64,000 nucleotides of DNA from Bacteriovoracaceae bacterium (GTDB taxonomy: Bacteria; Bdellovibrionota; Bacteriovoracia; Bacteriovoracales; Bacteriovoracaceae), in NCBI GenBank assembly GCA_041586955.1, contig JBFGZE010000003.1, forward strand, positions 34,855 to 98,854, read 5' to 3'. The notes under the pieces are model-generated. The model worked only from the letters and a program-made list of their open reading frames with translations, was not told the DNA's origin and searched no databases. Of this stretch, positions 34,803 to 55,634 are shown piece by piece; position 1 is the first letter of the stretch; each line of letters opens with the position of its first letter. The position numbers were made by a program, and so were the translations under genes.

Positions 34803-35795
34803 TTATTCTAAATTAATCTGGTCGATATTTTCTTCAATAAAGGATTCAAACGATGCTCGTGATCTTTCATAAGCGTCAATCATATTACGTCCCATTGCTA
34901 TTTCATTATGGGAAATACTCCCCAGAATCAATCCCTTGGGACTTATTGCTTTAAGTGCGAGACTAAAGCGAAACCTTTTAAAGCCTTTAACATTAAGATG
35001 AAGAGGATAGACAAGAAAGCTCCCTTTAACTTTATGATAATTTTTTTTTGTATCATTACTAATTTGAAAGCCATTTTGCCCCAAAACCTTAGCAATAAAT
35101 CGTTTCCACTTCCCTTGGGTTTTTAATTCTTTAAACTCCAAATGCAGCGAAAATGGTATCGCCATTACTTGGGCACGCTTTTTTAATATCTTTTCACGAT
35201 TAATCTCGGCAGGAAATCCTATTCCACGAACCAACTGAAACTTCTCATCGACTGATTGCCTCTTCTCCCAAATTCGCAGGGCGCGATTAAGCCCAAGTCG
35301 ACTCCCTCGAAGATAAAGCGCCTTAACACTCTGGTCAAAATTCTCTAGCCGACTTTTTAACAGAGACGCGATGGCCTTCTTTCTAAGGCGCGCCAGGGCA
35401 TAATACCCTTCACCATCTTGATAATTTGCCGGTACCTCGACCCCCTCCAAAAGCGAATCGACCTTTTCTTGAAACTCCAGGTCATAAGTCTCCTGGACAG
35501 TATTCGTTTTTGCCGCTTGCTCCAGGTCTTGACCGTCATGTACTACCTGATGGGTCATCTTACTCTCAATGCGCACTTGGAAAAACTTTGCCAATTCTTC
35601 ACGGGCCTTGGCCTGGGCCAACATTTTACTGCTGGCAGAGCCCGTGGCACAAATAAATTCTTGCCTACAATAATGGCCAGGTTCATTAACCCAGACTGGC
35701 CTTTTCCCAGCTTTCACTTCGAGATGCCCCTTCTTACCCTGGTGAGAACAGGCCATTAACAAGACGAGAATCAATAAATGCTGAATCGGGACCAT
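34803..35795 (-). CDS. LPP20-family lipoprotein
   Basis: Lipobox LMAC, 'RPVWV', 'AQAKAREELAKFFQVRIES', 'YYALARL'; start trimmed to MVPIQH. Confidence 0.7.
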   Translation of the reverse strand: MVPIQHLLILVLLMACSHQGKKGHLEVKAGKRPVWVNEPGHYCRQEFICATGSASSKMLAQAKAREELAKFFQVRIESKMTHQVVHDGQDLEQAAKTNTVQETYDLEFQEKVDSLLEGVEVPANYQDGEGYYALARLRKKAIASLLKSRLENFDQSVKALYLRGSRLGLNRALRIWEKRQSVDEKFQLVRGIGFPAEINREKILKKRAQVMAIPFSLHLEFKELKTQGKWKRFIAKVLGQNGFQISNDTKKNYHKVKGSFLVYPLHLNVKGFKRFRFSLALKAISPKGLILGSISHNEIAMGRNMIDAYERSRASFESFIEENIDQINLE

Positions 35796-35967: not shown

Positions 35968-36543
35968 GTGGAACATAAATTACCAGAACTACCATATTCA
36001 AATGATGCTCTAGCGCCTCATATTTCACCTGAAACCATTGAATACCATTATGGTAAGCATCATAATGCCTACGTCACCAAGCTGAATGCCGGGATCAAAG
36101 GGACAGAATTTGAAAATATGGAATTAGTCGACATCATCAAAAAGGCCAAAGGCGGACTTTTTAATAATGCGGCCCAAGTTTATAACCATACCTTCTATTG
36201 GAATTCCCTATCACCAAACGGTGGCGGTGAACCAACTGGTGCCATTGCAGATGCTATTAACGCCAAATGGGGCTCTTTTGCCGACTTTAAAGAGGCCTTC
36301 TCTAATTCTGCCGCCACAAACTTCGCTTCAGGCTGGACATGGCTTGTTAAAAACTCAAATGGAGAGCTTGAAATCGTCAACACTGACGATGCTGATACTC
36401 CTGTTCGCGTCGGAACTCAATGTGTGCTGACTATCGATGTATGGGAGCATGCATATTATATTGATTACCGCAACGCTCGTCCCAAATACATTGAGGCCTT
36501 TTGGAATCTCGTGAATTGGGATTTCGCCAATAAAAACCTTTAA
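35968..36543 (+). CDS. sodB: Superoxide dismutase [Fe]
   Basis: 'HYGKHH', 'NNAAQVYNH' (Fe-type Gln), 'DVWEHAYY'; upstream TTGCAA-17-TAAACT. Confidence 0.95.
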   Translation: MEHKLPELPYSNDALAPHISPETIEYHYGKHHNAYVTKLNAGIKGTEFENMELVDIIKKAKGGLFNNAAQVYNHTFYWNSLSPNGGGEPTGAIADAINAKWGSFADFKEAFSNSAATNFASGWTWLVKNSNGELEIVNTDDADTPVRVGTQCVLTIDVWEHAYYIDYRNARPKYIEAFWNLVNWDFANKNL

Positions 36544-36690: not shown

Positions 36691-36963
36691 CTATTGAGTT
36701 CTTAATATAAGATGATACCCAAACTGGGTTTTAACCGGGGCCGAGACAGCTCCGACTTCAAGGGCATAAACAGCTTGTTCAAATGGTTTAACCATTTGAC
36801 CGCGGCCAAATGTTCCAAGATCCCCACCATTTTTTCCCGAGGGGCAGGTAGAAAAGTCTTTCGCTAATTGTTCAAAGGAGGCACCATCTTCAATTTTTTT
36901 GACGAGGTCTAAGACCTCATATTCATGTTCGACTAAAATATGTTTTGCTGAGACCGCTGCCAT
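36691..36963 (-). CDS. ppiC: Parvulin peptidyl-prolyl isomerase
   Basis: 'HILV', 'SCPS.KNGGDLG.F..GQMV..FE', 'TQFGYHLI'. Confidence 0.95.
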   Translation of the reverse strand: MAAVSAKHILVEHEYEVLDLVKKIEDGASFEQLAKDFSTCPSGKNGGDLGTFGRGQMVKPFEQAVYALEVGAVSAPVKTQFGYHLILRTQ

Positions 36964-36982: not shown

Positions 36983-37309
36983 TCATTCATCTTCAATCGG
37001 CTTATCTATTGGTTCGTAGTCTTTATATAAAATATAACGGCCACTTCTCAAGCCGCGTAGAACCAAACCAAAAATCATGAGAGTCATAAACCCACTTTGA
37101 TTATTTTGTGATTCCATCGAAAATATCCCTGGTAAGGACTTTCCGGTCCAATAACTGGCCCCTGCTAAAGCGCAAAGCTTAAATAATCCAAGAACTAAAT
37201 GGATCATTCGACGATAATTCCATTGAACTTTACAAGCGCCACAATAATATGGCGGGGCCATGATGCTTGAACAATGAGGACATTGAAGGGAATATATTTG
37301 ATTGATCAT
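36983..37309 (-). CDS. Small membrane protein with N-terminal zinc ribbon
   Basis: CPHC...CGAC followed by two hydrophobic segments; ATGA overlap with upstream peptide ORF. Confidence 0.6.
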   Translation of the reverse strand: MINQIYSLQCPHCSSIMAPPYYCGACKVQWNYRRMIHLVLGLFKLCALAGASYWTGKSLPGIFSMESQNNQSGFMTLMIFGLVLRGLRSGRYILYKDYEPIDKPIEDE

Positions 37310-37467
37310 CTATTGAGATGAAGCTGATTTTTATCCCAGGGAAGCCTTTTTTCAGAATTGCCGCCGGCACTACCGCCGATGCCACCTTTCCTCGGACCTG
37401 AAAAAAGAATGCCACTTAAAAGAGTTAATAAAATAATATAAGTTATTTTTTGTATATTAGTTTTCAC
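37306..37467 (-). CDS. Unannotated 53-aa secreted Gly-rich peptide
   Basis: Hand-translated from GTG: MKTNIQKITYIILLTLLSGILFSGPRKGGIGGSAGGNSEKRLPWDKNQLHLNR*; start overlaps end of upstream HTH gene, stop overlaps next ATG. Confidence 0.75.
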   Translation of the reverse strand: MKTNIQKITYIILLTLLSGILFSGPRKGGIGGSAGGNSEKRLPWDKNQLHLNR

Positions 37468-38260
37468 TTAGTGTATCCGTTAGTAAAAAGGTAAAGGCAC
37501 GCACATCACCCTTGTGTTGTGCCCCTCTTGAAATAGCGACCTTTTGATTGAAGGCCTTTTCATCAATATCAATCCATTTTGAATAAGCTTCAGGCGACAG
37601 ACCTTCGGCATAAAGGGCCATAAAATTTTTACCATTTTCGTCTGAGTTTTCAGGACTTAAATATTTTTCACTTAAATGAAGTCCCACGCGCTTAATGGTT
37701 TCCGGGCCAAAACTCGCTAAGTTTTCACCAAGAACTAAGAAGCCCCTCTCATTAACTCTTAGAACCTTCCGTTCGAGCATACGATTTAATGTTTCTAGGC
37801 CATGCTGGCCAAAGCGAAACTGAATCAATTCCTTGGAGATCTCACCGGTCCCAGCAAGAAAGTAAATTTCAGCAAAGCAACGGTCATAACGCAATTCTGC
37901 CTCTACATCACCAGATAATTGATGACCTTGAAAATAGGACTGCGGGTCTCGTTTTTTTAACTCGGAGGCAACAACAGGCGGCACTAACTCAATGAGGAGG
38001 CAATCATTTTGAGTGGCGAAAAGGTAGCGATAGATTTTATATAAAGTTTGGTAGCCCGGACGGTTTTCACCTTTAATCAAACGCCTCAACGTTTTTGAGT
38101 GAATCCCCATGCTATCAGACATTATCCGCATACCGATTTGTGAAGTTCTAAATTCTTTTAACTTTTGCTTCAGATCTAGGCTTACTTGGGATTTGAGATC
38201 CATCGTACTGACTTGTAAATTGGATACGTTTAAGTCATCGCTAGAAACAACCGTCACCAT
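37457..38260 (-). CDS. XRE-type HTH regulator with C-terminal domain resembling TIGR02147/DUF4423-type proteins
   Basis: 'MSDSMGIHSKTLRRLIKGENRPGYQTLYKI' XRE HTH; winged-helix-like middle; family call from recognition only. Confidence 0.65.
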   Translation of the reverse strand: MVTVVSSDDLNVSNLQVSTMDLKSQVSLDLKQKLKEFRTSQIGMRIMSDSMGIHSKTLRRLIKGENRPGYQTLYKIYRYLFATQNDCLLIELVPPVVASELKKRDPQSYFQGHQLSGDVEAELRYDRCFAEIYFLAGTGEISKELIQFRFGQHGLETLNRMLERKVLRVNERGFLVLGENLASFGPETIKRVGLHLSEKYLSPENSDENGKNFMALYAEGLSPEAYSKWIDIDEKAFNQKVAISRGAQHKGDVRAFTFLLTDTLSEN

Positions 38261-38355: not shown

Positions 38356-38386
38356 AAAAAAAAAGAGGAAGCCTAAGCTCCCTCTT
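38356..38386 (-). terminator. Intrinsic terminator after 38419-38958 gene
   Basis: AAGAGG...CCTCTT hairpin followed by T-run on minus strand. Confidence 0.65.
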
Positions 38387-38418
38387 CACTATCTGCTATC
38401 CCTGGAAGGGTTGATATT

Positions 38419-38958
38419 TTAGTGGCAGCTTGGAATTGTATAATTCTTTGTGAAAAGCTTGCGACCCCTTTGGGAGTTATAGTTGCCATCACGACGATTT
38501 GTTCTTCTTGCTTTATAAACAGGAATCTCATACGAAAGAGGAACATCAATTGTCACAGTTCTGTACTTTATACAATTACCTTCTCCTCCTCTTGTTCTTG
38601 CATACTTAGCGCAAACCTTTGCATCGTAAGTCATCGCCTGAACACCGTAGAATTCTTTATACTCTGTACATCTATACTCTCCACGTCTATCACCTGGAAG
38701 TCTGTCTCTGCTAACACATTTTTTGATTTTTTTAATAGTTCTGAACTCGTCACCATCAACACACACAAACATAACCGATGTATTTCCGGCATTAGCAAGT
38801 TTTAGAGATGGGACATCAAATTCAACTACTGAATTTTTCAATTTTTTTAATGTGGACCAAGATGTTGAACTAGATACTTTAGTCTTCTTCCCGAAAAATC
38901 CTGCTTGAGCTTGAGCTACCATTGCAATTGCTGCAACAAGAACGAATAATTTTTTCAT
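38419..38958 (-). CDS. Secreted basic Cys-containing protein with internal duplication
   Basis: Signal peptide (AQA); two similar Cys-bracketed loops (CVSR...RCTEYK / CAKY...NCIKYR); promoter TTGTCA-17-TAGAGT at 39022-38994. Confidence 0.75.
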   Translation of the reverse strand: MKKLFVLVAAIAMVAQAQAGFFGKKTKVSSSTSWSTLKKLKNSVVEFDVPSLKLANAGNTSVMFVCVDGDEFRTIKKIKKCVSRDRLPGDRRGEYRCTEYKEFYGVQAMTYDAKVCAKYARTRGGEGNCIKYRTVTIDVPLSYEIPVYKARRTNRRDGNYNSQRGRKLFTKNYTIPSCH

Positions 38959-50143: not shown

Positions 50144-51916
50144 TTAGGTATAATGCCGCAAGGAATGTTCTTCTTGGCGAGGAACAGAAAAGGCACTGAC
50201 TCTTTTGAGATAACCAATGACCCGTGTTCCATAATCGATATTTTCACTTCCACATTGCTGGCAATGTGTTGTCGTTCGCTTGCTAATATGATCACAATCA
50301 TTACAGATCGTAATCTTCACATTAGTACAAAAATAATTACAGCCGGTATTCGCCGATACATTTAATAAAGACCTATAATTATCTTTAGTTAAATGTTCAT
50401 CAAGGTTAAGGTGCAAGGCAGAGCCCCCATCGAGATATTGGGTTATTTCCTTTCCGTGAAGAATAAATTTGTCGAGATAATTAACATCAGTATCTTCAGT
50501 TGGATAAAAATACGAATTATAACAATCTCGTGGCACAAAATAACCATCTTTGCGATCCCAACTAGCATTTTTCGGCCCAAGGTTTTCGGCGGGTACAAAC
50601 TCAGTATTAAACATGTGCCCATACTCTTTCCGAGCAGCTCGATTTTCATCGTAGATAGTTTTTAATAATGAACTGACAAATGTTTTATATTTATCGTTAT
50701 TTCCCGGAACTATGCCATTATACTCGGCCGCTTCAACCATCCCATTAATCCCAATTGTTAAGAATTGCTTTTTAAGAGAAATAAAGCCAGCATCATAGAC
50801 AGGTAACATTCCATTATCTTTATACTTTTGAATAATACTCATATAAGCAAGTTGGTATTTTTGTATTTTTTGAATCTCTGTTTTAAGGTCACGCCCGTCT
50901 TGGATCAGACGATTCATATTAATGGTGATCACATTAACAGAACCGGTTGCCACCCCCCCAGCACCAAGAGAATAACTAAAGGTATTATCTGAGATCTCAT
51001 TTCTCAAACGACAGCAGCTGGCCAAACTATCGGCATTTTCAGATTGGTAAACAAAAAAGGAATTTCCTATCGATAATTGGTCGGCACAAAAATCGGCAAA
51101 ATCCAAATCGACAGGACCTTTTGTTTTTTCGACCAACATAGCAGCAGTAACAACGGGGAAAGTGAGTACCGCCTTTTCTCTTTCACGTCCAAACCAATTC
51201 ATAAAGAACTCTTGTAAGTTCATTAAACTTTCCCATTTTGGTTTACTCATATCGGGAAAGACAAAATCTCCAAACATACTATTAAAATAGCCTTCGTCAT
51301 AAAGTGAAATATTCCAAAATACTGATTGATAACCACGAGCTGCCGCCGGCTGGTTAATCGAATAGACAATATGTTGTAGATGATTGGCTATTTGCTGAGA
51401 ATGGGTTAAATGGTAATCATCACCATAATCTTTACGAGCAAAATGATCAAAATACATCAAGAACTCAACTGTTGCTACCGCCCCAGCAAATTGTGAACTG
51501 ACCGCAAAAACCAAATTAATAAAGGAGCCACAGAAACTTTCCAGATGCTGGGGCGCCTGGCTTTCTCCGCCTAATTCTGTAATCCCTTTTAATAAAAAGG
51601 GGTACATACTAATTGAAACACAATAAGGCTTTAGTGATGTTTCATCGTGAACATAGATTTCATGACTTTCAATCTGTCTATTATATTCCTGAGCTAGCTC
51701 TGTTCCGAACATGCGCTCAATATTTTGGCTTACTAAAGCTCTGTTAACTTGTATATTAATATCTTTATTTAATTCATTTTCAAGTGTCGCAATGTTTTTA
51801 AATGAAACATTCGCATTGGCGTCAAATTTTGAGCCTGTGGCGGCATTCGTTGCCTCAATATAATCATTGATGAAGTTGATCTTGTCGTTTATTTGATCCT
51901 GATTTAATGTCAACAT
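50144..51916 (-). CDS. nrdD: Anaerobic (class III) ribonucleotide reductase, no ATP-cone
   Basis: 'IYVHDE..PYC', 'LTFPV', 'SCCRL', 'VPAENLG', C-terminal CxxC..CxxC and glycyl-radical 'RVIGYL'. Confidence 0.95.
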   Translation of the reverse strand: MLTLNQDQINDKINFINDYIEATNAATGSKFDANANVSFKNIATLENELNKDINIQVNRALVSQNIERMFGTELAQEYNRQIESHEIYVHDETSLKPYCVSISMYPFLLKGITELGGESQAPQHLESFCGSFINLVFAVSSQFAGAVATVEFLMYFDHFARKDYGDDYHLTHSQQIANHLQHIVYSINQPAAARGYQSVFWNISLYDEGYFNSMFGDFVFPDMSKPKWESLMNLQEFFMNWFGREREKAVLTFPVVTAAMLVEKTKGPVDLDFADFCADQLSIGNSFFVYQSENADSLASCCRLRNEISDNTFSYSLGAGGVATGSVNVITINMNRLIQDGRDLKTEIQKIQKYQLAYMSIIQKYKDNGMLPVYDAGFISLKKQFLTIGINGMVEAAEYNGIVPGNNDKYKTFVSSLLKTIYDENRAARKEYGHMFNTEFVPAENLGPKNASWDRKDGYFVPRDCYNSYFYPTEDTDVNYLDKFILHGKEITQYLDGGSALHLNLDEHLTKDNYRSLLNVSANTGCNYFCTNVKITICNDCDHISKRTTTHCQQCGSENIDYGTRVIGYLKRVSAFSVPRQEEHSLRHYT

Positions 51917-52376
51917 AGGTGTGTCCTCTCTTGTCCCTGAAAAGGTGGTTTAAACTCTCTCCATTTCGTAAATCGATAAATTTCTGGTTTGTGTGTTTAT
52001 TATCTAATCCTCCGAGATGCTCCTTCCACGGTCCGGTTTTAATAAATGTTAAATGTGTTAAAATGGACTCGTGCACATTGTCTCCCCCCGTGTATAGACA
52101 AGTTTCAAGTCCTTCTTCTTTTGCTATTTTTAATAATTCAATAAGTTTTTCCCTCTTCCACTCTCCACCAAAAAAACAAATGCAGGTGATAAGTGACTTA
52201 TAAGAATGTAAAACCTTAATAAATTTTTCTGGCGTTAATGGAATTCCATTTTCGGCATCCCATAAATGAGAGGAATGACAACCATCGCATTGATAAGGGC
52301 AACCAGTAATTGAAAAGATTAATGAAATATGATTGGGTACCTCTTGAAAGGCCACATCAATCTGGAAAACCTTCAA
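51864..52376 (-). CDS. nrdG: Anaerobic RNR activating enzyme
   Basis: 'FQEVP', 'GCPYQCDGCHS', 'GGEW', 'LGGL..TNQ'; TTG start with GGAGG RBS. Confidence 0.93.
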   Translation of the reverse strand: MKVFQIDVAFQEVPNHISLIFSITGCPYQCDGCHSSHLWDAENGIPLTPEKFIKVLHSYKSLITCICFFGGEWKREKLIELLKIAKEEGLETCLYTGGDNVHESILTHLTFIKTGPWKEHLGGLDNKHTNQKFIDLRNGESLNHLFRDKRGHTYVDIKSGSNKRQDQLHQ

Positions 52377-52416
52377 TGGTCACCTCCCCAAAATAATATC
52401 CGTATTCTCATTATTA

Positions 52417-52458
52417 AGATTAAGGGCTGAGTAAATTAATGAGTATGACTGAAATCAC
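52417..52458 (-). promoter_or_regulatory. Class II Crp/Fnr-type promoter of nrdG-nrdD
   Basis: GTGATTTCAGTCAT (52458-52445), centre 29.5 bp from TAATCT. Confidence 0.65.
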
Positions 52459-52513
52459 CATTCACGAAATAAATACAGGTGTAAGAAATGATCATAAAGA
52501 TCATTGTTAAAAC

Positions 52514-52555
52514 ATGATGAAGCTCATACGCACTCAATATTTCTCAACCTAGAAT
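52514..52555 (+). promoter_or_regulatory. Class II Crp/Fnr-type promoter of nrdB
   Basis: ATGATGAAGCTCAT (52514-52527), centre 29.5 bp from TAGAAT (52550-52555). Confidence 0.6.
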
Positions 52556-52577
52556 GCCTCCATAACAAGATATGGGG
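52531..52577 (+). promoter_or_regulatory. Tandem NrdR-box-like sites
   Basis: CACTCAATATTTCTCA and ATAACAAGATATGGGG with cores 31 bp apart, directly before nrdB. Confidence 0.6.
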
Positions 52578-52585
52578 GGTAACAA

Positions 52586-53554
52586 ATGGCATCAATCTTA
52601 ACGCCAAATCCAAATCGCTTTGTTCTTTTTCCAATCGAATATGATTCCGTTATGGAAATGTATAAAAATCATATGGCGGTTTTTTGGACGACAGAAGAAA
52701 TCGATCTTGACCAGGATATCCTCGATTGGGATAAACTAAATAAAGATGAACAACACTTTATTTCTCACGTACTCGCTTTCTTTGCGGCCAGCGATGGTAT
52801 CGTTAATGAAAATTTGGCGCTACGCTTTTATAACGACGTCCAAATTCCCGAAGCTAAATGTTTCTATGGTTTTCAAATTGCGATGGAAAATATTCATAGT
52901 GAAATGTATAGCTTAATGATTGATACCTTTATTAAAGACCCCGTCGAAAAGGATAGACATTTTAAAGCAGTTCAAAATTATCCATTTGTCGCCGAGAAGG
53001 CCAATTGGGCGCTTAATTGGATTAATTCTGATGCAACCTATGCCGAGCGTTTGATCGCGTTTTGTGCAGTCGAAGGTATTTTCTTTTCGGGCTCATTTTG
53101 TTCGATTTATTGGCTTAAAAAAAGAGGGCTTATGCCTGGGCTGTGCACTTCAAACGAATTCATAGCCCGCGATGAAGGGCTTCATGCTGAGTTTGCTTGT
53201 TTAATGCATGATCTTCTCCCTCCAGAACAAAAATGTGATAAGGCCAAAATTACCCATATCATTACTGAAGCAGTTACCATTGAAAAGAAATTCATTTGCG
53301 AAGCACTTCCTGTTTCCCTAATTGGAATGAACTCTGATTTAATGGCCACTTATATTGAATTTGTCGCCGATTTTTGGCTAGATCGACTCGGCTGCAATAA
53401 AGTTTATTATTCTGAAAATCCTTTCGATTGGATGGATTTAATCTCACTGGAGGGAAAAACAAATTTCTTTGAAAAACGCGTGAGTGAATATCAAAAATCA
53501 GGAGTCCTGGCCGATCGTTCTCAGCAGCGCTTTAGTCTTGATGAAGATTTTTAA
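52586..53554 (+). CDS. nrdB: Class Ia ribonucleotide reductase beta subunit (eukaryote-like subclass)
   Basis: 'RFVLFPI', '[13 protein letters not shown]', 'ENIHSEMY', 'EGIFFSGSF', 'DEGLH', 'KTNFFEKRV', ends DEDF. Confidence 0.95.
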
Positions 53555-53560
53555 CCAAAA

Positions 53561-54139
53561 ATGGGCACCTTTTTTGTCACCGTCCTCTTTATCATAATTT
53601 TGGGTTTTCTCCTGACCGCTTTAAAATATTTAGGTCAGGAGAAACACCTAAGTCAGTCTTATTATAATCATTTCAACTTCTCCTCCCTTATTATTTCAGT
53701 TCCCCCCTGGTGGCAAAAAACAGGTGACCCCATTGGAAGATTAGGATTCCGCTCCCTAATCGGCACAAGGGAGTTCATTTGTGAATTCCAATTACAAAAA
53801 ATAGTCCCGTCCCGAGAATTCCAAACAAATTTCCCTTTTATGCTTGGTGATTTTCTCGATTCTCATCATATTGTCATGGATCCCGATTCTGTCCTCGAAA
53901 ATCGCAAAGAGATAATCATCTCCGATCAAAAACTCAATCAACGCATCCAATCCATTTATCGGCTTGAGGGAAAAGGAACTCTTAAAAAAGAAAAGCGTAT
54001 TTACCTGGATTGCTTCCTCATTAAATACACTGATTTGCCCACCCCTCTCCTTTGCTATGCTATTAGTCCTGTCTTAATGGGAGGTCTTGAAGGACCATAT
54101 TTTGAAAAAGCGGTCTTCCATATGGCCGTAGCTGAGTGA
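53561..54139 (+). CDS. Hypothetical membrane-anchored protein
   Basis: N-terminal TM, 'VPPWW', 'GGLEGPYFE'; 6 nt after nrdB. Confidence 0.6.
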   Translation: MGTFFVTVLFIIILGFLLTALKYLGQEKHLSQSYYNHFNFSSLIISVPPWWQKTGDPIGRLGFRSLIGTREFICEFQLQKIVPSREFQTNFPFMLGDFLDSHHIVMDPDSVLENRKEIIISDQKLNQRIQSIYRLEGKGTLKKEKRIYLDCFLIKYTDLPTPLLCYAISPVLMGGLEGPYFEKAVFHMAVAE

Positions 54140-54193
54140 TTTCTATTGAATTATTGGACTTTTCTCATTATTTTGGAAGAAGGAGAAATCCCA

Positions 54194-54964
54194 ATGACAA
54201 AGCACACCATTCTTATTATTTTATTGTGTCTCAATATATCATTAGGCCATGAGCAATTGCATGCCGAGGTTATTCGCGTTGCAGTCGCAGCGAATTTTAC
54301 TCCAACATTAAAATTAATCGCTCATGATTTTAAAAAAATCACAGGCCATCAAATTCAAATTTCCTCCTCTTCTACGGGTAAGCATTTCGCCCAAATCCAA
54401 AATGGGGCACCCTTTGACATTTTTTTTGCGGCCGATCGTCAAAGACCTGAGGCCCTAGAGCAATCGGGGGTGGCCCAAAAAGGTACACGTTTTACCTATG
54501 CTCTTGGTAAAATTGTTCTTTGGAGCCTCAATAAAAATCTCATTGATAACCATCCTGATATTTTAAAAAACAAGAAATTTAAATTTTTGTCTATCGCCAA
54601 TCCTAAATTGGCGCCCTACGGTCGAGCGGCACTTCAATACTTAGAAGCATTAAAATTGATGCCCCAGCTAAAAGGTAAAATTGTCCGCGGTGAAAATATC
54701 ACTCAGGCCTTTCAATATATTTTAAGTGGTAATGCCGATTTAGGATTTATCGCCAAAACACAGGCAATCACTCATTCTTCAGGATTTTTTTGGGAAATCC
54801 CCCAGGATCTTTACACTCCTATAGAGCAACAAGCGATTTTGATTAAAGAAAACCCTATTGCCAAACAGTTTTTAACTTTCGTGAAATCCAGAAAATCCTT
54901 AGACATTATTAAGAAACAGGGTTATGGCATTCCCTCTTTGCAAGGTCACAACGATGGTCAATAA
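54194..54964 (+). CDS. modA: Molybdate ABC transporter substrate-binding protein
   Basis: 'VAVAANF', 'SSTGK', 'NGAPFD.F..A', 'ANP.LAPYG.AA'; start trimmed to MTKH. Confidence 0.95.
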   Translation: MTKHTILIILLCLNISLGHEQLHAEVIRVAVAANFTPTLKLIAHDFKKITGHQIQISSSSTGKHFAQIQNGAPFDIFFAADRQRPEALEQSGVAQKGTRFTYALGKIVLWSLNKNLIDNHPDILKNKKFKFLSIANPKLAPYGRAALQYLEALKLMPQLKGKIVRGENITQAFQYILSGNADLGFIAKTQAITHSSGFFWEIPQDLYTPIEQQAILIKENPIAKQFLTFVKSRKSLDIIKKQGYGIPSLQGHNDGQ

Positions 54965-55634
54965 TGATAGTTTTTTGGCCCTTGCCATTACTTTAAAACT
55001 GGCCTTTGTGACAACATTCTGTCTTTTAATAATTGGAACACCTTTGGCATGGTGGCTTTCACAAACTCGTCATCGTTTTAAAATTATAATTGAGGCGATG
55101 GTGGCCTTACCTTTGGTCCTACCTCCAACAGTCCTAGGATTTTATCTTCTCATCTTTTTAGGCGCGCAAGGCCCTCTCGGCCAATTAATGTTATCCTTAG
55201 GGTTACAACCTCTCGCTTTCACCTTTACCGGCCTGGTTATTGGCTCTTTTTTTTATTCCCTCCCCTTTGTAGTTCAACCTCTTCAAGAAACATTTTCGTC
55301 CATTGGCACAAGGCCTTTGGAAGTTGCGGCGACTTTACGGGCGGGCCCTTTTGACCGGTTTTTTAATGTCGTTATTCCGCTCGCCCGCCCTGGATTTTTA
55401 ACTGCAATGGTCCTTGGGTTTGCTCATACTGTTGGAGAATTTGGTGTAGTGCTAATGATCGGTGGTAATATCCCGGGGAAAACTCAAGTGCTCTCGATTG
55501 CCATTTATGATCATGTCGAATCAATGGAATATGGCCAGGCCCATATCCTTTCAATTGGACTCCTGATCTTCTCCTTTTTCCTCTTGTTCTTGGTATACGG
55601 CCTTAAACGGCGCCAGCAAGGAGGCCAGCAATGA
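54954..55634 (+). CDS. modB: Molybdate ABC transporter permease
   Basis: 'LPLVLPPTVLGFYLL', 'FAHTVGEFG'. Confidence 0.95.
   Translation: MVNNDSFLALAITLKLAFVTTFCLLIIGTPLAWWLSQTRHRFKIIIEAMVALPLVLPPTVLGFYLLIFLGAQGPLGQLMLSLGLQPLAFTFTGLVIGSFFYSLPFVVQPLQETFSSIGTRPLEVAATLRAGPFDRFFNVVIPLARPGFLTAMVLGFAHTVGEFGVVLMIGGNIPGKTQVLSIAIYDHVESMEYGQAHILSIGLLIFSFFLLFLVYGLKRRQQGGQQ

Follow-up and report, generated by a model that had tools for sequence, protein, structure and literature searches.

ORF53, a reading frame of 53 codons on the minus strand of the 64,000-nucleotide (nt) stretch of DNA analyzed here (hereafter, the window; positions 34,855 to 98,854 of contig JBFGZE010000003.1 from the Bacteriovoracaceae genome assembly GCA_041586955.1), lies in a locus that is a truncated member of an undescribed, phylum-wide cassette consisting of a regulator gene and a coupled gene for an exported partner protein. 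ORF53 itself is, with good probability, the truncated 5' part of the gene for the cognate partner of the adjacent regulator; it is neither a nonsense nor a frameshift allele of that gene. The beta domain with four conserved cysteines that follows in full-length partners has been lost from the window by rearrangement, and an unrelated orphan open reading frame (ORF) abuts the remaining part. The genes concerned are the following:

37457..38260, minus strand: regulator of 267 amino acids (aa), with an XRE-type helix-turn-helix (HTH) domain at about residues 18-104 and a winged helix plus helices at about residues 112-264

37306..37467, minus strand: ORF53, with a signal-peptide-like N-terminus, the motif GIGGSAGG and a conserved Trp, cut before the four-Cys beta domain

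36983..37309, minus strand: ORF108, an orphan of 108 aa with a CxxC...CxxC pattern and two hydrophobic segments, the start of which overlaps the ORF53 stop

38419..38958, minus strand: exported four-Cys paralog of 179 aa, with a signal peptide, the conserved Trp and four conserved Cys, and no Gly motif

ORF53 (37467..37306, GTG start) is absent from the ORF track of the window. Its first 11 nt overlap the end of the regulator gene (the last codons and the TAA of 37457-38260), and the ATG of ORF108 (37307-37309) overlaps the ORF53 TGA (37306-37308) within the tetranucleotide ATGA. The translation contains a basic N-region (K2, K7) and a hydrophobic core, ITYIILLTLLSGILF, followed by GPRKGGIGGSAGGNSEKRLPWDKNQLHLNR; the full product is MKTNIQKITYIILLTLLSGILFSGPRKGGIGGSAGGNSEKRLPWDKNQLHLNR. 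An earlier note made from this sequence had described a hidden 53-aa frame starting within the last codons of the HTH gene and stopping on the next ATG, and both its position (37467-37306) and its translation prove correct.

A search for the regulator in 61 related genomes finds matches in 17 of them and yields 22 other loci that could be analyzed; each of the 22 has an ORF of 125-193 aa, the start of which lies at -42 to +30 nt relative to the regulator stop, often with an ATGA overlap. A profile built from 31 regulators detects the family in 137 of the 201 genomes of the bacterial family at E<=1e-20, and the 40 further loci drawn from the top of its match list comprise 38 with a complete coupled ORF of 130-199 aa, one with an ORF cut at 128 aa by the contig end, and one (L095) with none. 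Over the entire subfamily, a coupled partner of 125-199 aa is encoded in 61 of the 62 other loci, with the start at -73..+30 nt from the regulator stop. In the partner proteins, a signal peptide precedes the motif G-x-G-[GDN]-x-x-G-G, and a conserved Trp and then a beta-rich domain with four conserved Cys come next; Pfam and NCBIfam scans of these proteins find nothing. Matching by regular expression, with the five most distant loci (L011, L012, L013, L017 and L025) left aside, identifies the motif in 53 of 56 partner ORFs, including that of the window, compared to 4 of 2,616 control ORFs. The alignment of the partners shows two invariant positions, G29 and W44, and near-invariance of G31, G35 and G36. 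The check proposed in the earlier note, namely that homologs of the regulator should be followed by coupled ORFs with a signal peptide and a Gly-rich segment, thus comes out positive in the same 61 loci. The idea that these ORFs are dedicated small secreted propeptides is not supported, the recurrent partner being an exported four-Cys beta-domain protein of 125-199 aa of which ORF53 is best read as a truncation.

The truncation is apparent from the alignments. ORF53 aligns with the signal peptide, the Gly motif and the Trp of the partners and stops about 9 residues past the Trp, and the match of the partner proteins to ORF53 is confined to their first ~36 residues; at full length, they match the upstream 179-aa gene 38419-38958 instead (tblastn E-values of 2e-10 to 3e-4). 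A tblastn search of the segment 36600-39100 with 22 partners (word size 2, E<=10) returns only noise for a partner remnant in any frame of 36983-37306, so that a simple indel error is excluded. Thus, ORF53 possesses the N-terminal features of the partner family by alignment, regular expression and profile, and lacks the four-Cys beta domain. Among the partner ORFs, the third positions of the Gly codons in the motif are free to vary, and for the first 50 codons, the ratio of nonsynonymous to synonymous substitution rates (dN/dS) lies in the range 0.04-0.24 for 13 ortholog pairs of relatives; therefore, the constraint acts on the protein. Conservation of the motif at the DNA level, as an operator, is rejected because of the freely varying third positions. 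The purifying selection on the frame that the earlier note had called for is accordingly found in the relatives.

The ORF53 frame is a real coding sequence, or was one until very recently. A hidden Markov model (HMM) of the N-terminal part (42 positions, trained on 39 partner proteins of relatives from which the window ORF was excluded) matches ORF53 with E 1.6e-7 and 32 bits in a search of the 26,775 ORFs of at least 30 aa from the same genome; only the paralogous partner on contig C111, which belongs to the training set, ranks higher, and the next match has an E-value of 0.015. ORF53 was also scored by codon usage, with log-odds derived from 1,318 long ORFs of the genome: the in-frame value is +0.226 per codon, versus -1.21 and -1.47 out of frame. 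The in-frame value is at the 18th percentile of real 53-codon windows (mean 0.34, standard deviation 0.13) and is reached by 0 of 10,000 off-frame windows. Four public DNA runs from marine metagenomes, all from one study and one of them possibly the source sample, contain the stretch; contigs of two of these runs cover the junction of ORF53 and ORF108 with 0 differences, a check for population variation detects no variant between 37114 and 38500 in the contigs of the runs, and no RNA run is listed among the public runs that hold the stretch. ORF53 is missing from a collection of 5.8 billion proteins that includes both the regulator and ORF108, in line with its absence from the ORF track. A word search with ORF53 alone identifies no homolog of 29-93 aa, a phmmer search of 1.84 billion representative sequences gives one meaningless match to a 1235-aa protein, and a protein atlas search yields no usable match for ORF53, the partner of locus L018 being assigned as ‘hypothetical protein, Bdellovibrionota’ with a score of 0.75.

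These data bear on the explanation that ORF53 arose by chance, or reflects an assembly or frameshift error in a metagenome-assembled genome. The genome is a draft (194 contigs, 88% complete), short ORFs are plentiful in the window, with its GC content of 39.8%, and the single-sequence searches find no relatives. The family HMM match and the coding-like codon usage speak against this explanation, as do a position and start context like those of the orthologs, the lack of a partner remnant in another frame and the contigs of two runs spanning the junction. Chance or artefact is largely refuted already and would be a very improbable account.

Whether ORF53 is still produced and exported as a minimal partner or is a recent dead relic is nearly balanced, with a slight preference for the former. 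The intact start, the retention of all motif residues, the coding-like codons, the coupled stop and the minimal partners that are encoded elsewhere (see below) favor function; the unique form in the subfamily, the GTG start, the stop about 7 codons past the end of homology and the lack of relatives in which selection could be assessed favor a relic.

The 179-aa protein encoded upstream of the regulator is, judging by sequence similarity, a paralog of the beta domain of the partner family. Its best blastp match is a Gly-less paralog in L008 (E 9e-28), and such Gly-less paralogs are also encoded upstream of the regulator in L002, L003, L005, L018, L020, L023 and L024; in L003, several of them occur in a row. 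The canonical layout, which the window retains, is a Gly-less paralog, a terminator, the regulator (260-270 aa) and the motif-bearing partner; the window thus contains one copy of a cassette conserved in the Bacteriovorax/Halobacteriovorax-like family. The structural model of the 179-aa protein is all-beta, with a predicted local distance difference test (pLDDT) score of 88, and comparison with solved structures reveals no counterpart of the fold (best Foldseek E-value 0.42; best VIA-align Z 2.9 among 48,161 chains).

The only Pfam domain identified in the regulator is HTH_3, with E 0.0015, and this domain is recognized in 18 of the 31 family members. In the AlphaFold model (pLDDT 88), residues 112-264 form helices and a three-strand wing. 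VIA-align matches residues 15-104 to XRE HTH structures (Z 6.3-7.7), and residues 114-264 best match the winged-helix protein 4g6q_B (Z 10.1 over 143 aa, root-mean-square deviation 6.0); a Foldseek search with the regulator gives nothing below E 0.026. No tetratricopeptide repeat (TPR) array or TPR-like peptide-binding domain is found in the model, and the structures of ComR and PlcR align to the regulator only over residues 15-103, that is, the HTH domain; the model and the structure matches thus agree with the earlier note in that the regulator has no TPR array. Searches for a solved relative by sequence with both regulator profiles detect none, the best match being a sigma-54 HTH with E 6e-4. 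The names attached to relatives of the regulator are from Bdellovibrionota (Bacteriovorax, Halobacteriovoraceae and Bdellovibrio).

Sequence comparison further indicates that the regulator is a distant relative of the TIGR02147 family, outside its curated cut-off of 50 bits. None of the 31 members of the regulator family has a TIGR02147 or DUF4423 match at E<=1, and the search for TIGR02147 in the same genome finds its one true member, on contig C59 (91 bits), and not the window locus. An hhalign comparison of the 31 regulators with 28 TIGR02147 sequences gives a probability of 90% and E 1.6e-6 over 193 aligned columns; with a single TIGR02147 sequence as the template, only the HTH is aligned, with 1.6%. 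Of the resemblance to the TIGR02147/DUF4423-type proteins suggested earlier, a distant relationship with a family expanded in the phylum therefore stands, and direct recognition by the family models does not (0 of 31).

The TIGR02147 loci themselves encode similar pairs. Of 101 genomes chosen from across the phylum, 81 have TIGR02147 matches, and some of them have more than 20. Among the 30 best-scoring TIGR02147 loci, 25 contain a coupled ORF with the pattern G...G[NQ] in the first 60 residues, behind a signal peptide or lipobox (e.g., GGEIGN, GFEIGN and GTDTGN), a pattern seen in 55 of the 2,616 control ORFs; the coupling at these top loci is mostly through an ATGA overlap. In a second sample (60 loci fetched, of which 59 were used and one lacked a regulator ORF according to the script), 17 loci conform to the strict pattern and 13 more encode looser Gly-rich variants identified by eye. 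The C-terminal parts of the TIGR02147 partners differ widely, being absent in some and longer than 490 aa in others. Partners of 47-71 aa occur in the TIGR02147 branch only (L055, L061, L062, L038 and L043), and those of 47, 67 and 71 aa (L055, L061 and L062) are conserved at orthologous loci of three genera. Some of the TIGR02147-coupled ORFs contain two to four copies of G-x-E-x-G-N-G (L051, L061, L062, L066 and L125). Examples of ORFs that are short or carry several motifs are:

L055:2321-2461
L061:1290-1490
L062:2321-2533
L066:1652-2143
L125

These short and multi-copy ORFs resemble multi-copy peptide precursors. In the genome from which the window derives, the TIGR02147 gene and a third paralog each precede a gene whose product likewise combines a signal peptide with a Gly-rich segment. 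Downstream of the TIGR02147 gene on contig C59 (L036:279-1487, minus strand), after 10 nt, a 403-aa protein with a signal peptide and the segment GGHESGGGTG is encoded; this segment is intermediate between the two motif types. A scan of the same genome by regular expression for a signal peptide plus Gly motif is too noisy to be used. On contig C6 (~51274-55428, minus strand), a 265-aa ORF overlaps, through ATGA, the start of a lipoprotein-like ORF of 1384 aa; possibly, this pair is a further cassette of the same kind in which the partner is very large. Taken together, the window cassette is a divergent branch of a phylum-wide pairing of TIGR02147-type regulators with coupled exported proteins, in which a related motif follows the signal peptide.

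The part of the partner that co-occurs with the regulator is its N-terminal module. Scanning five near-complete genomes with a profile of the module produces 21 matches at E<=0.01, of which 15 are located directly downstream of a regulator match, and at E<=1e-4 all of the matches (12 of 12) are. The six matches away from regulators are the weakest (E 0.002-0.0085), and three of these cover the signal-peptide positions only; in the genome of the window, both significant module matches are regulator-coupled. Given that the module is nearly exclusive to regulator-coupled genes and that the C-terminal parts vary or are nearly absent, it appears to be the module and not the C-terminal domain that is functionally tied to the regulator. 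Prediction of a complex of the regulator with residues 24-53 of ORF53 gives a score of 0.50 (0.50, 0.30 and 0.52 in individual runs), with at least 95% of the contacts shared between runs, a pLDDT of 50-56 for the partner and a best score of 0.00 among three controls, which amounts to weak support for an interaction. The mark set for the complex score is reached by 116 of 157 solved complexes versus 2 of 215 mismatched pairs, and scores that pass at 0.60 or below are found for only 18 of the 157 solved complexes and for both passing mismatches; these benchmark counts hold only roughly here, given that the present prediction used its own alignments.

These observations can be put together as a working scheme. 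The regulator would bind DNA and control its own operon; ORF53 would probably be translated via coupling to the regulator stop and enter the Sec pathway; the partner would be exported, with the N-terminal module being the part that matters to the regulator; and the tie between module and regulator would most likely be direct contact with the N-terminal segment in an unexported or a processed form. The probability of such a contact, with the module as unexported precursor or as released peptide, is put at somewhat less than even. In its broadest form, the scheme becomes a phylum-wide signaling system of the TIGR02147 superfamily, in which the regulator reads the Gly motif that follows the signal peptide of its partner, and ORF53 is a still-working version reduced to the ligand; this version is only tentatively proposed and seems unlikely in full. 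Under such a system, the motif would be read either in the unexported precursor, providing secretion-coupled feedback, or in a released peptide, the C-terminal domain of the partner would be an exchangeable cargo or sensor, and some predatory Bdellovibrionota genomes would harbor more than 20 cassettes.

Several points weigh against direct contact and against a functional ORF53. The case for contact between regulator and module consists of the association and one weak complex prediction, and the co-occurrence could also result from common descent of the entire cassette. Nor is the pairing universal: a coupled ORF of this kind is missing from 29 of the 59 loci in the second TIGR02147 sample. 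Within the subfamily, ORF53 is the sole short form among 63 loci, and its stop, about 7 codons past the end of homology, is located as at a fresh deletion junction. The GTG start lacks a clear Shine-Dalgarno sequence, which precedes the partner start in 26 of 45 relatives, and the residues at -3/-1 of the presumed signal-peptidase site appear poor by eye. There is also no close relative of the genome: the nearest regulators are ~51% identical, a scan of genome contigs for relatives of the regulator gives one spurious match of 43 residues in a Prevotella record, and a scan of metagenome contigs gives no match.

An alternative to contact is that the Gly motif is a sorting, processing or anchoring signal for a shared envelope machinery, with the regulator merely switching the operon and ORF53 being a functionless leftover. 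Sorting signals and linkers usually are located directly after the signal peptide or the lipobox Cys, and this is where the motif is found (e.g., CGGGSDVGNP and CGGTATGNP); the regulator models as a two-domain DNA-binding protein without an obvious ligand pocket, and ORF53 is the only short form in its subfamily. However, a general signal would be expected elsewhere too, whereas the significant module matches are all coupled to regulators, and paralogs of the same beta domain that lack the Gly motif are exported all the same. The conservation in three genera of partners that consist of little more than a signal peptide and the motif (L055, L061 and L062) is also at odds with a mere sorting role. 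The motif as a sorting or processing signal beside a regulator that only switches the operon is a possible but doubtful reading, and the same grade applies to this explanation as a whole, with the functionless ORF53 included.

The pair could also be compared to the RRNPP regulators and their propeptides (PlcR-PapR, NprR-NprX, AimR-AimP and ComR-ComS), in which case ORF53 would encode a dedicated propeptide: after export and processing, the product would be taken up again, and the regulator would bind it as a quorum or prey signal. Compatible with this view are the architecture, in which a coupled ORF with a signal peptide comes after an XRE-HTH regulator, the short partners (47-71 aa) and the two to four motif copies in the TIGR02147 branch, as in multi-copy pheromone precursors, the exclusivity of the N-terminal module to regulator-coupled genes and the weak complex prediction (0.50 versus 0.00 for the best control). 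On the other side, the regulator has no TPR, the model of its C-terminal half shows a winged helix and additional helices, and ComR and PlcR align over the HTH only; the partner in the subfamily is a folded protein in 61 of 62 loci; the motif is nearly identical among paralogs of one genome, which leaves little room for pair specificity; and no import or processing component is identified. In addition, the conserved segment is at the mature N-terminus, unlike RRNPP propeptides, in which the active peptide is at or near the C-terminus. Such a peptide-signaling pair is improbable. As far as the model of its fold goes, the regulator is not a member of RRNPP, given that it lacks the TPR domain.

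Compared with known systems, the closest parallel is TIGR02147 (NCBIfam ‘Fsuc_second’; Pfam DUF4423), with which the regulator shares a length of ~270 aa, an N-terminal HTH and a C-terminal domain, as well as the coupled gene for an exported protein with a Gly-rich motif right past the signal peptide; this last feature of TIGR02147 comes from the present analysis and is absent from the curated definition of the family. The motifs differ: G-x-G-[GDN]-x-x-G-G in the window partner versus G-x-x-x-G-N in the TIGR02147 partners. With RRNPP, the locus has in common the N-terminal XRE-type HTH, an adjacent co-transcribed gene for an exported product and, in the wider TIGR02147 family, short partner forms; it differs in the regulator without TPR, the Gram-negative host, the partner that normally is a folded protein of 125-199 aa and the conserved segment at the N-terminus of the mature chain. 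As regards the small size typical of RRNPP propeptides, ORF53 has 53 aa, its subfamily relatives have 125-199 aa in 61 of 62 loci, and only the TIGR02147 branch includes products of 47-71 aa. Another analogy is SinR-SinI, where a small protein is encoded beside an XRE-HTH regulator; by analogy, ORF53 could modulate the regulator by direct binding. SinI is cytoplasmic and shares the helical hooks of SinR, unlike ORF53, the N-terminus of which resembles a signal peptide and the sequence of which is not similar to that of the regulator, and the structure 1b0n matches the regulator only through the HTH. The best structural match of the C-terminal half of the regulator, the winged-helix protein Kfla_6221 (PDB 4g6q), is different in that it shows 11% identity, has no XRE domain, gives a Foldseek E-value of 0.05 and is not matched at the sequence level. 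By analogy, then, the nearest description of how the locus may work is an XRE regulator that has its own co-translated partner.

The third gene of the locus, ORF108, had been put forward in the earlier note as a zinc-ribbon membrane protein that is possibly a third component. ORF108 is an orphan, with 2 weak matches in 121 genomes of the family, one of them inside an unrelated reductoisomerase-like gene, and its role as a conserved third component is rejected on these grounds. In the protein collection, ORF108 is found only as itself, recorded as a protein of 92 aa (85% of ORF108) that presumably was called from the second in-frame Met; if so, this form lacks the first CxxC, and the ‘zinc ribbon’ depends on the chosen start. 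A further candidate explanation, that ORF108 is the frameshifted remainder of the partner (the lengths of 53 and 108 aa add up to nearly that of a partner), is also rejected: there is no homology to the C-terminal part of the partners in any frame, and the frame of ORF108 itself is coding-like, with a codon score of +0.143 that is at the 2.3rd percentile of real genes and is reached by 0 of 10,000 off-frame windows.

The surroundings of the cassette include two more features:

38362..38387, minus strand: intrinsic-terminator-like hairpin with an 11-bp stem and a T-run, which ends the gene upstream of the regulator

36691-36963, minus strand: PpiC-type rotamase gene (Pfam E 1.5e-22), 20 nt after ORF108

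The regulator operon begins after the hairpin. The hairpin closes the upstream gene, and no terminator-like site is detected from the regulator through ORF53 to the start of ORF108, so that the three genes look like one transcription unit; the rotamase gene is possibly a further member of it. A scan with the sigma-70 consensus finds no minus-strand promoter upstream of the regulator. When the 90 nt upstream are scanned, a box ATGNTA(T/A)A occurs 18-39 nt before the regulator start in 11 of 59 loci, compared to an expectation of 2.3 (standard deviation 1.5, maximum 7) in 500 shuffles; this box is probably an extended -10 element. The region upstream of the regulator in the window contains TATGATAAG (~38300-38292), which is one base off the pattern. 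A 191-aa ORF at 35968-36543 on the plus strand resembles Fe/Mn superoxide dismutase by eye, and a check of the composition detects no anomaly.

A search of open-access papers and preprints finds no mention of TIGR02147, and a search of the open-access literature and preprints for Bdellovibrio together with HTH and secreted Gly-rich proteins finds nothing relevant; the pairing of regulator and partner and the motif appear to be undescribed. One published report includes the DUF4423 protein Bd3700 among the proteins upregulated during growth in prey.

The ‘53-aa peptide’ of the window is a truncated copy and is not evidence for a peptide pheromone, and the cassette family is of more interest than this copy. 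The beta domain of the full-length partner has no counterpart among solved structures. The short motif is the sole feature common to the coupled exported proteins and is found almost only beside such regulators, which provides a defined segment to mutate or synthesize. TIGR02147/DUF4423 is among the most expanded regulator families of the predatory Bdellovibrionota and is one of unknown function, and it now has a concrete partner.

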